Shown: one piece after another, positions 22,345 through 34,867 of the stretch
How the letters are laid out: every line of letters begins with the position of its first letter
Position numbering within the stretch: position 1 is the stretch's first letter
NCBI GenBank assembly: GCA_000004695.1
Contig: CM000151.3
Location: 5,280,001-5,344,000 of the forward strand
Direction of reading: 5' to 3'
Origin: Dictyostelium discoideum
Taxonomy: Eukaryota
Length of the DNA: 64,000 nt
Made by a program: the position numbers and the translations under genes
Notes under the pieces: model-generated
What the model was told of the DNA's origin: nothing
Seen by the model: only the letters and a program-made list of their open reading frames with translations
Databases searched by the model: none

Positions 22345-31304
<8,960 letters not shown>

Positions 31305-31439: not shown

Positions 31440-33176
31440 TTAATTAATTAATTTTTCCTTTTTCTTTAAAACTAACTTTATGGAATCAATTGTTAAATTT
31501 TTACAAATTGAAGATAATTTTGAAGAATCTAATAAAATTGTTCCATTTTCTTTTGTTAAATTCCAATCACTAATATTAATATTTGGATCAATTTCATTTC
31601 TTAAAATATCTTTTAACTCTAAAAATGTATGATCTAAAATTGCTTCAATTTCAAAAGTTTGTAAAAATTTTTCAGAATTAATATCTTGAATGATATCGAT
31701 TGTAACTGTAATAGTTTTTGGTTCTATTGAAAAAATAGGTTGTTTAGTTGTTGTATGTTTAATTGGAGAAATAATATTATTAATTGTTGATTGTAAAAAT
31801 GATGTTTCATTTGATTTTGAAGGAGCTAAATTTTGATTTTGATTTTTACTTTGAGTTATTAAATCTTTTTCATTTTTAATTTTACAAAGTTGAACTGCTT
31901 TTGTTAATAATCTAAGATATTGAATATCTTTTGAAATATCTTTAGTTGTTTCATTTTCAGTGTAATTATTAATAATAAAAGTATTTGATTTTTGAATTGA
32001 TAATTCATTTACTTTATTTAAAAGTTCTTGGAAAACATTTTTAGTTAGTGAATCAACAAATGTAATTGCCATCAAAGGTGTTATACCAACTTTTATAACT
32101 TCTTGAATTTTTTTTTCAATTTTTGACATTGCTGTTGCATCATTGAAATTTCTAATTGAAACAACAAATATGAAACAATCAATACGATATTCTTCATTTG
32201 GTAGTTGAATTAAACAATCATTTTTTGATGTACCATGATGAATTCTACCCTCGGCTTTATGTTTTAACTCAACATCAGTATCTACAAAACCCCATGTATC
32301 GGTCCATACAATATCGATATCCTTAAAAGATTCTTGAACAGGATGAATATCATATTTTGATTGTAAAATTTCTTTTAATGATGTACAATCCACAGATCTT
32401 GTAACATGGTCACCATTTGAACGATTTGCAATAAAATATTCAACAAAATCAAATGTTGGATTAAATAAATTTACAAATCCATTTAAACATGTACTTTTAC
32501 CATTTCCAATACCACCTTCAACACCAATTGAAACTCTATATTTTGATTTTAAGTCACCTAAAAAGTAACAAATATTTAACCAAATGAATCCTTCAATTAT
32601 ATTTTCTTTATCATTAAATAATTCAATATTAAATTCAATATGCGATGGGAAATTTTGATATTGGCTCTTTTCAATTTGACCCTTTTTATAATCTAATCTA
32701 ATTGTTTCTTCATATGGGTGACCAAATAAAATATCATTTTTAATTTGAATTGTATATCCAGAGTAATATTTACTTGGTAAAAATTTAATTTTTGAACCAG
32801 ATGGTATACATGATGTATTTCCATCTGGTTTTAAAACTATGTCTAAATATAAATCATCTTTAATTGATTGAGTTTCATTTGAATGTGGAAAAACTTCAAT
32901 ATTAATTGGACAATTAATTGATGATCCTTGTTCTGAATTTAAATCTGAACTTTTCAATAAATTTGAAATATCTTTACTTGGATTTTTGCTAAATGGAATC
33001 ACAACTATATCTGGTAATAATGTTTGTAAATTCTTAACTCCTTCTTCACCACAACCTGCAATACCATAAATAAAATTATTTTCTAAACTCATAATTTCAA
33101 CTAAACCATCTGATGAATCATCACTTGATATTCCACTTTTTAAAATTAAAAAAAAGAAAAAAAAAATATTAATCAC
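31440..33176 (-). CDS. Divergent P-loop GTPase-like protein (G1 GGIGNGKST, G3 DTWG, no canonical NKxD); the 5' end is uncertain
   Basis: Continuous 578-codon track ORF. The first ATG in the frame gives MSLENNFIYGIAGCGEE.... Motifs VSIGVEGGIGNGKSTCLNGF, DIDIVWTDTWGFVD and CFIFVVSIRNF suggest a TRAFAC-class GTPase (immunity-associated-GTPase-like), followed by a long alpha-helical C-terminal region. Confidence 0.6.
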   Translation of the reverse strand: MINIFFFFFLILKSGISSDDSSDGLVEIMSLENNFIYGIAGCGEEGVKNLQTLLPDIVVIPFSKNPSKDISNLLKSSDLNSEQGSSINCPINIEVFPHSNETQSIKDDLYLDIVLKPDGNTSCIPSGSKIKFLPSKYYSGYTIQIKNDILFGHPYEETIRLDYKKGQIEKSQYQNFPSHIEFNIELFNDKENIIEGFIWLNICYFLGDLKSKYRVSIGVEGGIGNGKSTCLNGFVNLFNPTFDFVEYFIANRSNGDHVTRSVDCTSLKEILQSKYDIHPVQESFKDIDIVWTDTWGFVDTDVELKHKAEGRIHHGTSKNDCLIQLPNEEYRIDCFIFVVSIRNFNDATAMSKIEKKIQEVIKVGITPLMAITFVDSLTKNVFQELLNKVNELSIQKSNTFIINNYTENETTKDISKDIQYLRLLTKAVQLCKIKNEKDLITQSKNQNQNLAPSKSNETSFLQSTINNIISPIKHTTTKQPIFSIEPKTITVTIDIIQDINSEKFLQTFEIEAILDHTFLELKDILRNEIDPNINISDWNLTKENGTILLDSSKLSSICKNLTIDSIKLVLKKKEKLIN

Positions 33177-33399
33177 TTTTTTTTTTTTTTTTTTTTACTT
33201 TTGATAAACAATAATTATTATAACTTTTAAATTTACCTTGAAAATATTATAATATTAGAAATAGAAGTATCTGATCTAAATGACTCAATATTTTTATAAC
33301 ATTCTTGTAAAGCCAATCCAAAATTTGCTTGGTTACTTGTTTTGGAAAATTTTACTAAAAAAAAAAAAAAAAAAAATTATTTATAATTTCATATAAAAA

Positions 33400-33684
33400 T
33401 TAAAATATAAAATATAAATACTTACTCTCTTTTATTGAATCCCTTAATAAAATTGGTTGTTGATCAAATTCAAAAATTTGTAAAACCTCCTCATTATAAG
33501 TAATAATTTGTATTTCCGATTCTTTTTGTGTTTTTTGAAGATTTTGAATAAAAGTTTTGATTGAAACATTGTATAAAGCCATATTTAAAGTGTTTTCTAC
33601 TAAAATAGAAAAATACAACTTATCACTTTCTACATTTTGCAATGATTTTATTTCTGTTTTTAAAGCTTGTCTTTGGATATTCAT
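33400..33684 (-). CDS. Possible upstream exon or small ORF adjacent to the GTPase-like gene
   Basis: Coding-like 94-codon ORF (MNIQRQALKTEIKSLQ...) ending at a GTAAGT donor after AAA GAG A. A phase-matched acceptor (ggtttag|TTGAA, giving ...KE-I-EIMSLENN) exists but has a weak polypyrimidine tract, so the linkage is unproven. Confidence 0.3.
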   Translation of the reverse strand: MNIQRQALKTEIKSLQNVESDKLYFSILVENTLNMALYNVSIKTFIQNLQKTQKESEIQIITYNEEVLQIFEFDQQPILLRDSIKESKYLYFIF

Positions 33685-33821
33685 TTTCTATTTTAATATT
33701 TTTAAAATAAAAAGAATAAAAAAATAAAAATTATTTTATACCTTTTTCTTTTTTTTTTTTCTTTTTTGAAAGGCTTAAATTTTTAAAAAAACCTAAATTA
33801 GGATTTTTTAAGAGTTTTTTT

Positions 33822-33868
<47 letters not shown>

Positions 33869-33974
33869 AAGTCGGACTCAAAATATTGAAATTTTCTTTT
33901 TCAAAAACTCATAAAAAAAATATTTTTAAGAAATAATTATTTTTAAACAATTTAAGTTTGTAGATAATTGCTAT

Positions 33975-34011
<37 letters not shown>

Positions 34012-34060
34012 GTAATTAATTTGACCAATAATAGAAGTTTATTTATGTTTTTTTATTTTT

Positions 34061-34109
34061 TGGGACAGGGATCGAACCAACGATCTTAACTTCGAATGTA
34101 ATATAAAAC
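34061..34109 (-). other. tRNA-like 3' fragment (..GTTGGTTCGATCCCTGTCCCA) directly abutting tRNA-Met
   Basis: Contains a T-loop-like GGTTCGATCC motif and a CCCA end but does not fold as a complete tRNA. A partial copy of the tRNA-Met 5' end plus its flank recurs at 34342-34365. Confidence 0.4.
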
Positions 34110-34182
34110 TGTCAAGTCAGAGGATCGAACTCTGGACCTTAGGATTATGAGACCTACGCTCTACCAACTGAGCCAACCTGAC
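34110..34182 (-). tRNA. Elongator tRNA-Met (anticodon CAT)
   Basis: Reverse complement reads GTCAGGTTGGCTCAGTTGGTAGAGCGTAGGTCTCATAATCCTAAGGTCCAGAGTTCGATCCTCTGACTTGACA. Anticodon loop CTCATAA. T-loop TTCGATC, which is not the initiator GATCGAAA. The 31-39 U-U mismatch typical of elongator tRNA-Met is present. Confidence 0.85.
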
Positions 34183-34867
34183 ATCTTGATGTTTTTTTAT
34201 TTTTTTTTGCTGGAATCGATGTACTAACTTTTTCCCAAAAATTCTCCATTTTAATTATTTAGCATCTCAAGGAGAAGCAACTAATAATTGCGTTATCCAA
34301 TTCAAAAAAAAAAACTTGTTCTAAAAAAATCTAGCAACTAAGCCAACCTGACATGTTGATGTTTTTTTGTAATAAAGCTTATTTATTAATTTAAGTTGTT
34401 TTGTTTTTTGAAAATTCTTGGTAGGTTTAAGTTGATAAAACAGTTTTGGAATAATTGACTATCTTTTGATGATCTTCTCTTCTTGTTTTACTGAGAGCCG
34501 ACTATATCTGTTCAACTAAAATCTAAATACATGGGAAACAAATTTCTAAACTTCCTTTATAAAATTAAGAGGCCTAGAAAACCTACAACTATTACTTTTT
34601 TAAATTTAACTAACATAATAAAAAAATAAGATAATAAAATAATAATAATAACCATGGTATAATAAATTGTCTTATTGAGAGAAAAAAAAAAAAAAAAAAA
34701 AAATTATATATATATATATAAATATATAATAACTAATTTACAAATATTACATACTCTAAAAAAATATTATTTTAATGTGTAAATGTGTTTGAAAGTCATT
34801 ATTATTTATTTTCTCTAAATATTATAAAGATAATTTAACAAACACTCTTTTCTTGGAGAATAAATTT

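Follow-up and report, generated by a model that had tools for sequence, protein, structure and literature searches.

A divergent septin/GIMAP-like G domain in the VWA and ubiquitin-like domain protein DDB_G0275033 of Dictyostelium discoideum

Introduction

Several groups of GTPases, namely septins, GIMAPs, Toc, and IRGs, are switched on when they dimerise. The G4 lysine of a canonical G domain packs its side chain on the guanine ring, and functional GTPases without this lysine are known, such as mitofusin, which carries N-R-W-D, and the GBPs, which carry T-L/V-R-D. Here, we describe the protein encoded by DDB_G0275033 of D. discoideum AX4, a gene on the minus strand (positions 33684 to 31440) of a 64,000-nucleotide stretch (GenBank assembly GCA_000004695.1, contig CM000151.3, positions 5,280,001 to 5,344,000; hereafter, the window, in which all coordinates below are given). 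The protein is labelled in databases only as "hypothetical protein / VWFA domain-containing protein". An earlier reading of this DNA, made from the letters and the open reading frames (ORFs) without database searches (the sequence-only reading), had noticed GTPase-like motifs in it.

A eukaryotic fusion of a GTPase with a VWA domain has been described before. The cpRAS-VWA proteins are patchily distributed among protists, D. discoideum included, and carry a circularly permuted Ras-family domain (motif order G3-G4-G5-G1-G2) N-terminal to a VWA domain of the Sec23-trunk type (Elias and Novotny 2008, PMC2430557). Septin surveys list none in Amoebozoa or Excavata (PMC11238149). A review of D. discoideum defence names a single GBP as the only immune-type large GTPase and does not mention a VWA-paraseptin-like family (PMC5758549), paraseptin standing here for the septin, AIG1-GIMAP, and Toc neighbourhood. 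In our literature searches, no account of an amoebozoan protein that combines a VWA with a septin/GIMAP-like domain turned up, nor did the locus tag DDB_G0275033 occur in the searchable literature. The locus is an already annotated gene and so not a new one; its G domain and the family it belongs to are undescribed in the literature and domain libraries searched.

Results

The P-loop region is a divergent G domain

The P-loop region of DDB_G0275033 is a genuine, highly divergent G domain of the TRAFAC class. The domain and its motifs lie at the following positions.

32579-31833, minus strand: divergent TRAFAC-class G domain, residues 312-560
32516-32493, minus strand: G1 / Walker A motif GGIGNGKS, residues 333-340 (GGIGNGKST, 333-341)
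32402-32400, minus strand: Thr371 of "HVT", presumed Mg-coordinating Thr of G2/switch I, in the α1-β2 loop of the model
32300-32289, minus strand: G3 / Walker B motif DTWG, residues 405-408, after strand 401-405 of the model
32063-32052, minus strand: G4-equivalent T-F-V-D, residues 484-487, at the end of β5, in place of NKxD
31970-31962, minus strand: N-N-Y after β6, residues 515-517, at the G5 position (N516 in 33/41, Y517 in 39/41)

An exhaustive search of 1.84 billion cluster representatives with a hidden Markov model (HMM) of the core (residues 300-550) returned 96 representatives at E<=1e-3, 50 of them at E<=1e-10. We aligned 41 diverse family cores (alignment A3; mean identity 27%), and all residue counts out of 41 refer to this alignment. 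Used as a profile against PDB sequences, A3 matched septin-3 with an E-value of 1.2e-8, profile positions 22-219 aligning to residues 15-195 (G1 to β6) and "ITFVD" falling on the septin G4 motif "AKAD"; septin-12, septin-9, and Cdc12 were matched as well. The weak matches of the family HMM include proteins of the coral Porites that pass the Pfam models Septin, AIG1, and MMR_HSR1. Comparison with the G domains of these proteins by hhalign gave a probability of 96.4% (E 1.3e-9), with G1, DxxG, and TFAD/TFVD in register. Single-sequence and close-family searches were uninformative by comparison, with faint EF-Tu, Ras, Rheb, and RsgA signals after DxxG. The septin and coral matches agree with the sequence-only reading, which had proposed a divergent, lineage-restricted GTPase-like protein, possibly of the IAN/GIMAP type.

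Similarly, an AlphaFold2 (AF2) model of the core built with A3 (predicted local distance difference test, pLDDT, 93; predicted template modelling score, pTM, 0.91) has the canonical order β1-P-loop (G1)-α1-G2-β2-β3-DxxG (G3)-α2-insert-β4-α3-β5-G4 equivalent-α4-β6-NNY-long α5. Its top Foldseek matches were MFN1, GIMAP2, EF-Tu, Irga6, Irgb10, and BDLP, and all whole-domain structural neighbours were GTPases. The predicted fold is thus that of a G domain and not of another class of nucleotide-binding protein. The spacing of the motifs, with 65 residues from G1 to G3, 76 from G3 to the G4 equivalent, and 28 from there to the post-β6 motif, is consistent with this fold.

Conserved motifs and the replacement of G4

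The motifs GGIGNGKST and DTWG named in the sequence-only reading are both present. The former contains the single GxxxxGK[ST] of the whole protein, in which G333, G338, K339, and S/T340 are invariant (41/41) and G336 is found in 40/41. The latter is the sole DxxG, with Asp405 and Gly408 in 41/41 and the tryptophan in 30/41. Because both motifs are conserved in all 41 homologues and are placed on the expected elements of the model, they are not chance occurrences. Thr371 is likewise found in 41/41 (His369 in 34/41) and would coordinate Mg. Gly422 (39/41), Asn516, Tyr517, and Asp529 are also near-invariant. The residue after DxxG, which corresponds to Gln61 of Ras, is Phe409 and is L/I/F/M/V in 30/41, so that there is no catalytic glutamine.

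G4 had been described as absent or replaced. A motif scan found no [NT]KxD anywhere in the protein, as had been noticed, and the alignments show that the motif is replaced by TFVD, not absent. I-T-F-x-D is invariant in the close family, and the 41 sequences of the wide family show [T32/N6]-[F20, K only 2]-x-[D32/N6]. The members with Asn for the G4 Asp include a sub-clade with N-F-x-N (P0023, P0026, P0034, P0041, and others; P numbers denote family members). An Asp-to-Asn exchange in G4 of Ras and EF-Tu switches specificity to xanthine nucleotides, and the N-F-x-N sub-clade may mark a changed nucleotide preference within the family. After β6, the sequence is I-N-N-Y-T and not SAK-like, G5 being poorly conserved among GTPase families; the N-N-Y may contact the base.

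Domain architecture

DDB_G0275033 consists of four folded modules: a VWA domain without a metal ion-dependent adhesion site (MIDAS), an Ig-like β-sandwich, the G domain, and a ubiquitin-like (UBL) domain that follows a disordered linker. The full-length AF2 model, made with an alignment of 14 dictyostelid homologues (pLDDT 71), places the VWA at residues ~1-188, the β-sandwich at ~203-311, the α/β P-loop module with its long helix at ~327-560, the linker at 559-597, and a ββαββ module at 600-684. The parts outside the G domain are as follows.

33621-32949, minus strand: VWA domain, residues ~22-188, interrupted by both introns (Pfam, Foldseek)
32915-32580, minus strand: β-sandwich (Ig-like) linker domain, residues ~200-311, ~7 strands with pLDDT 75-91 in the AF2 model
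31832-31722, minus strand: disordered low-complexity linker, residues 561-597, of varying length and heavily gapped in the family alignment
31721-31455, minus strand: UBL (β-grasp) domain, residues ~598-686, ββαββ in the AF2 model and with profile matches

The long N-terminal extension noted from the sequence is thus present, and its content can be specified as the VWA domain and the β-sandwich. The VWA is the only Pfam domain above threshold (PF00092, 28.0 bits against a cut-off of 23.8, residues 41-163). Foldseek with the full model against the PDB gave ANTXR2, integrin beta I-like, and vWF A1 domains at E 1e-8 to 1e-6, and further VWA matches to ITIH1, Sec23, TFIIH p44, and the BRCA1-A complex. 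ANTXR2, itself a VWA followed by an Ig-like domain, is the best full-length structural match. The MIDAS motifs DxSxS...GT...TDG are kept in distant family members. In DDB_G0275033 and its close relatives, E30-N-T32-L-N34 stands for DxSxS, "QAN" for G-x-T, and "FSSG" for TDG, so that this clade no longer has the metal-ion site. The β-sandwich is kept across the family, always directly N-terminal to the G domain, and found no credible relatives when its profile was compared with PDB sequences and Pfam. DDB_G0275033 has no signal peptide or transmembrane segment and is predicted to be cytosolic. Weak DNA_pol3_beta and MinC matches in single-sequence library scans were dismissed as noise.

The C-terminal half had been described as coiled. 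The models instead predict one long α5 helix (residues 526-560), the disordered linker (pLDDT <50 across residues 559-597 of the full model), and the UBL domain. A profile of the UBL from 19 family members matched the ubiquilin-2 UBL (E 2.2e-6), ubiquilin-1 (1.5e-5), ubiquitin (2.5e-4), and ISG15 (3.7e-4), and Pfam "ubiquitin" was matched weakly in 4 of the 19. The protein ends in ...LVLKKKEKLIN and has no C-terminal Gly-Gly; therefore, the UBL is an integral domain and not a modifier.

Gene model

The gene has three exons.

33684-33426, minus strand: exon 1, 259 nt, Met1 to the first base of codon 87
33425-33355, minus strand: intron 1, 71 nt, GTAAGT...TAG, AT-rich
33354-33237, minus strand: exon 2, 118 nt, residues 87-126
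33236-33136, minus strand: intron 2, 101 nt, GTAAAT...AAG
33135-31440, minus strand: exon 3, 1696 nt, including the TAA stop at 31442-31440

Joined, the exons give an in-frame coding sequence of 2073 nt (690 codons), the product of which is identical to AX4 DDB_G0275033 (100% identity, 100% coverage), and the Pfam VWA match crosses both exon junctions. The model gave three colinear blocks by tblastn against the window, and no paralogue was found in these 64 kb.

The two ORFs of the sequence-only reading, one of 578 codons (31440-33176) and one of 94 codons (33400-33684), are both present on the minus strand, and the GTAAGT donor seen at the end of the upstream ORF lies at 33425-33420. As suggested, a 5' exon lies in the 94-codon ORF, since the spliced product is identical to DDB_G0275033: the first 86 codons of this ORF, from the ATG at 33684, make up exon 1. 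Two exons and not one lie upstream, exon 2 having been overlooked. The reading frame closes only with intron 1 removed, and both ORFs run into introns, namely the last 8 codons of the shorter one (33425-33400) and the first 14 codons of the longer one (33176-33136).

Distribution and evolution of the family

Members of the family were found in Dictyostelia (Dictyostelium spp., Cavenderia, Acytostelium, Tieghemostelium, and Synstelium), Variosea (Nematostelium and Phalansterium), Discosea (Pellita), and Archamoebae (Pelomyxa), as well as in the aphelid Amoeboaphelidium, the heterolobosean Pharyngomonas, and environmental contigs. A second indexed protein search with a broad profile returned 7 proteins and no named relatives. 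The constant unit is the β-sandwich with the G domain, and the ends vary. At the N-terminus, there is either a VWA domain or a sub-threshold B-box with a predicted helical region. At the C-terminus, there is a UBL, a SAM domain (P0085), double zinc ribbons (P0032), or a second VWA with a protein kinase (P0044). The B-box variant, P0017 of D. citrinum (777 aa), has no VWA; its front end is TRIM-like, combining a long helical region with a zf-B_box match that scores 20.7 bits (cut-off 24.1). Only distant members touch curated GTPase models; for example, P0076 matches MMR_HSR1 with 23.1 bits (cut-off 21.9).

The D. firmibasis orthologue is syntenic and, as in the window, convergent with a Furry/MOR2-PAG1 gene. 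The DDB_G0275033 orthologues are 57-59% identical, against 93% for Furry. By the Nei-Gojobori method, the DDB_G0275033 pair has nonsynonymous (dN) and synonymous (dS) divergences of 0.25 and 0.94 and a ratio (ω) of ~0.27, which is approximate because dS is near saturation; for the Furry pair, dN is 0.031, dS 0.68, and ω ~0.05 (0.046). The protein-level rate is thus ~8-fold above that of the neighbour. These comparisons of sequences show that DDB_G0275033 is fast-evolving but constrained, as fits a functional gene. There is one member of the subfamily in AX4 and three in D. firmibasis. In another assembly, P0005 and P0012 (ACTFIW_009973 and ACTFIW_009974, on one contig) lie side by side; the first copy is full-length, whereas the second is truncated and has neither linker nor UBL, which points to tandem duplication and decay. 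In addition, the short fragments P0015, P0016, P0021, P0022, and P0049 resemble parts of pseudogenes or wrongly annotated exons.

Flanking DNA

The window has ~15-33% GC and contains poly-Q and poly-N coding tracts. The convergent neighbour at 23850-31304 (plus strand) is a homologue of the cell-morphogenesis protein Furry/MOR2-PAG1 with a poly-Q tract of ~47 residues, and its stop codon lies 135 bp from that of DDB_G0275033. Its match to Pfam MOR2-PAG1_N, a model of 559 positions, lacks everything before position 226, and the ORF in the window falls ~300 aa short of its D. firmibasis orthologue; therefore, its true start is probably in an upstream exon and not the ATG at 23850.

On the other side, a tRNA-Met(CAT) gene (34109-34183, minus strand) lies ~425 bp upstream of the DDB_G0275033 ATG. 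A near-duplicate of 34197-34161, which comprises the tRNA-Met 5' flank and the first ~22 nt of the tRNA (~37 nt in all), is found ~170 bp further upstream (34367-34331, minus strand), and a T-arm-like remnant, GGTTCGATCCC, follows the tRNA at ~34060-34080 (minus strand). These fragments could be a partial tRNA duplication or the scar of a tRNA-targeted retroelement. The upstream intergenic region (33790-34000) has long homopolymers, with ~39 T at ~33868-33830 and ~32 A at ~34009-33978 as read on the minus strand. Such runs are typical of Dictyostelium promoters and can give assembly or length errors.

Discussion

A candidate nucleotide-gated, dimerising switch

The reading that we favour, and consider somewhat more probable than all others together, is that DDB_G0275033 is a cytosolic VWA-septin/GIMAP-like-UBL protein that serves as a switch or scaffold, gated by nucleotide and dimerising. 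G1, Thr371, and DTWG would bind a nucleotide triphosphate, most likely GTP, with Mg2+. The G4 aspartate (Asp487) is kept, and Phe485 could offer the base-stacking surface that normally comes from the lysine. With triphosphate bound, the switches would become ordered and self-association through the G interface would be possible, until hydrolysis resets the protein. The protein lacks the catalytic glutamine, as do its nearest relatives, septins, GIMAPs, and other dimerisation-activated GTPases, which also have a hydrophobic residue after DxxG; therefore, it is probably activated by nucleotide-dependent dimerisation. The VWA and β-sandwich may form the end that binds partners or targets, independently of metal in the DDB_G0275033 clade, and the UBL may link the assembled protein to receptors that bind ubiquitin (for example, the proteasome or autophagy adaptors). 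Fast divergence, changing copy number, and the swapping of terminal modules suggest a conflict/defence-type or regulatory role rather than a housekeeping one.

Several points weigh against this reading. The G domain had no match in single-sequence Pfam, NCBIfam, and PADLOC scans, it fails every curated GTPase family HMM, and none of 10 diverse full-length members had a family-level Pfam match on it. The switch regions are of low confidence in the full-length AF2 model. With the canonical G4 lysine missing, guanine specificity is a prediction from sequence, and 6/41 relatives have Asn instead of the specificity Asp. A search of the switch-II insertion established no conserved arginine finger, R423 being R/K in only 22/41. 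A role in defence, ubiquitin pathways, or regulated turnover is suggested only by architecture and evolutionary rate, and the fast evolution, for which ω is an approximate value, could just as well come from relaxed constraint if the gene is dispensable.

Nucleotide specificity and catalysis

Among the alternatives, the one that survives best, although we regard it as unlikely, is that the protein is a working P-loop NTPase which has lost its guanine specificity and uses ATP, any NTP, or, in the N-x-x-N members, xanthine nucleotides. The composition of G4 speaks for such a change, with Lys at the second position in 2/41, Phe in 20/41, and N-x-x-N in 6/41, and so do weak single-sequence P-loop matches to ABC exporters, NadR, dephospho-CoA kinase (CoaE), and phosphoribulokinase. 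However, the specificity Asp is kept in 32/41 and in DDB_G0275033 itself, TFxD is in register with G4 of the septins and coral GTPases, and mitofusin and the GBPs are functional without the lysine. The ABC exporter, NadR, phosphoribulokinase, and CoaE matches, which were sub-threshold in phmmer and close-family-profile searches of the PDB, were rejected as family assignments because they span only the ~25-residue P-loop and are contradicted by the fold searches, in which the whole-domain neighbours are all GTPases.

We find it harder still to see the protein as a pseudo-GTPase, that is, a static nucleotide-bound or empty scaffold that serves as a pure adaptor between VWA partners and UBL receptors. 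The catalytic Gln and a clear arginine finger are both missing, the MIDAS already lost in the clade shows a tendency to active-site decay, and the protein evolves fast. Nevertheless, G1, Thr371, Asp405, and Gly408 are invariant in ~40 members that are otherwise only ~20-25% identical, which is typical of retained catalysis, and the ω of the orthologue pair indicates purifying selection.

Placement among known GTPases

An overlooked true Dictyostelium septin, forming cytoskeletal filaments, is effectively excluded, even though the best PDB sequence-profile matches are septins and the short member P0067 comes close to the Pfam Septin cut-off (24.7 against 26.2 bits). Pfam Septin matched neither the full DDB_G0275033 protein nor the cores of 10 close relatives, even at E<=10. 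The septin alignments end at about profile position 219 of 255 (β6), and DDB_G0275033 has no septin unique element. Its β1 is preceded by the β-sandwich, where septins have a polybasic region with its helix, and its G domain is followed by the long helix and disordered linker. G4 is T-F-x-D (here TFVD), as opposed to AKAD in septins, and a VWA...UBL architecture is unlike that of septins. Structural comparison puts septins no nearer to DDB_G0275033 than mitofusin, GIMAP, Toc, and EngB, and the surveys cited above place no septins in Amoebozoa or Excavata.

Nor does the protein belong to another described family. The sequence-only reading had suggested AIG1, IIGP, GBP, dynamin, and MMR_HSR1 as families to compare, and the corresponding Pfam models (AIG1, IIGP, GBP, Dynamin_N, MMR_HSR1) matched neither the protein nor its close relatives; it is related to such GTPases but not a member. 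GIMAP2, GIMAP4, and GIMAP7 are structurally similar to the G domain, but DDB_G0275033 appears to lack the C-terminal amphipathic helices or membrane anchor of GIMAPs. In contrast to mitofusin/Fzo1, BDLP, and the IRGs, it has no helical-bundle stalk and no transmembrane or lipid anchor, nor does it share significant sequence similarity with them; IRGB10 matched the A3 profile at the P-loop only (E 8e-4). The closest Pfam-recognised relatives found are Porites P0065 and P0102, which have the T-F-A-D type of G4 in common with it, as well as F-N-N-S after β6, in which Asn-Asn is shared. The Porites proteins differ in their tandem arrays of G domains, their DTPGFGD-type G3, and their lack of VWA, β-sandwich, and UBL, and they pass curated GTPase models. 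Compared with septins and paraseptins, the HVT, DxWG, and NY motifs are specific to the DDB_G0275033 family, and the G domain of DDB_G0275033 sits between VWA/β-sandwich and UBL.

As for proteins with a VWA, identity with cpRAS-VWA was ruled out, since the motif order of DDB_G0275033 is canonical (G1 at 333, G2 at 371, G3 at 405, G4 equivalent at 484), its G domain is septin-like, and its VWA is N-terminal; the two have in common that they are eukaryotic, patchily distributed fusions of a GTPase and a VWA. The VWA fold is also shared with Rpn10, TFIIH p44/Ssl1, MERIT40 of BRCA1-A, copines, and ANTXR, several of which are in ubiquitin-linked complexes, and the arrangement of VWA followed by Ig-like domain with ANTXR2. 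None of the intracellular VWA adaptors has a G domain or UBL, and the DDB_G0275033 clade differs also by its lost MIDAS. Because the curated models failed, the septin unique element and polybasic region are missing, and the motif order excludes cpRAS-VWA, the family is best described as a separate one, lacking a dedicated Pfam model and placed in the paraseptin neighbourhood of septin, AIG1-GIMAP, and Toc.

Finally, that the region is not a G domain at all but an ABC, AAA+, or kinase-type ATPase with coincidental G1- and G3-like motifs, as its top single-sequence PDB matches (an ABC exporter and NadR, E 0.14-0.29) might suggest, is effectively refuted by the conservation and fold described above.

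Meaning for social amoebae and the family

Social amoebae, and several other protists with them, have a family of septin/GIMAP-related G domains to which none of the domain libraries searched devotes a model. These G domains are housed in modular, quickly diversifying proteins that begin with VWA or B-box and end with UBL, SAM, zinc ribbons, or kinase. We put forward tentatively, and hold to be rather doubtful, the wider proposal of an ancient eukaryotic "VWA-paraseptin" family of GTPases in septin-less lineages (Amoebozoa and Heterolobosea) and in aphelids, which would recognise guanine through a Phe-for-Lys T-F-x-D motif. In this proposal, the members would be nucleotide-gated and self-assembling, as sensors or adaptors of cell-autonomous defence or of ubiquitin-dependent quality control, an amoebal functional counterpart of the animal GIMAP, IRG, and GBP proteins.

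If DDB_G0275033 is a minor lineage-specific adaptor, the result is simply an improved annotation of one hypothetical protein. If it is a dimerisation-activated switch, it would provide a genetically tractable model of paraseptin-type GTPases wired to ubiquitin-like signalling and a natural experiment in guanine recognition without the NKxD lysine, and the family would be a missing outgroup for the evolution of septins, GIMAPs, and Toc.

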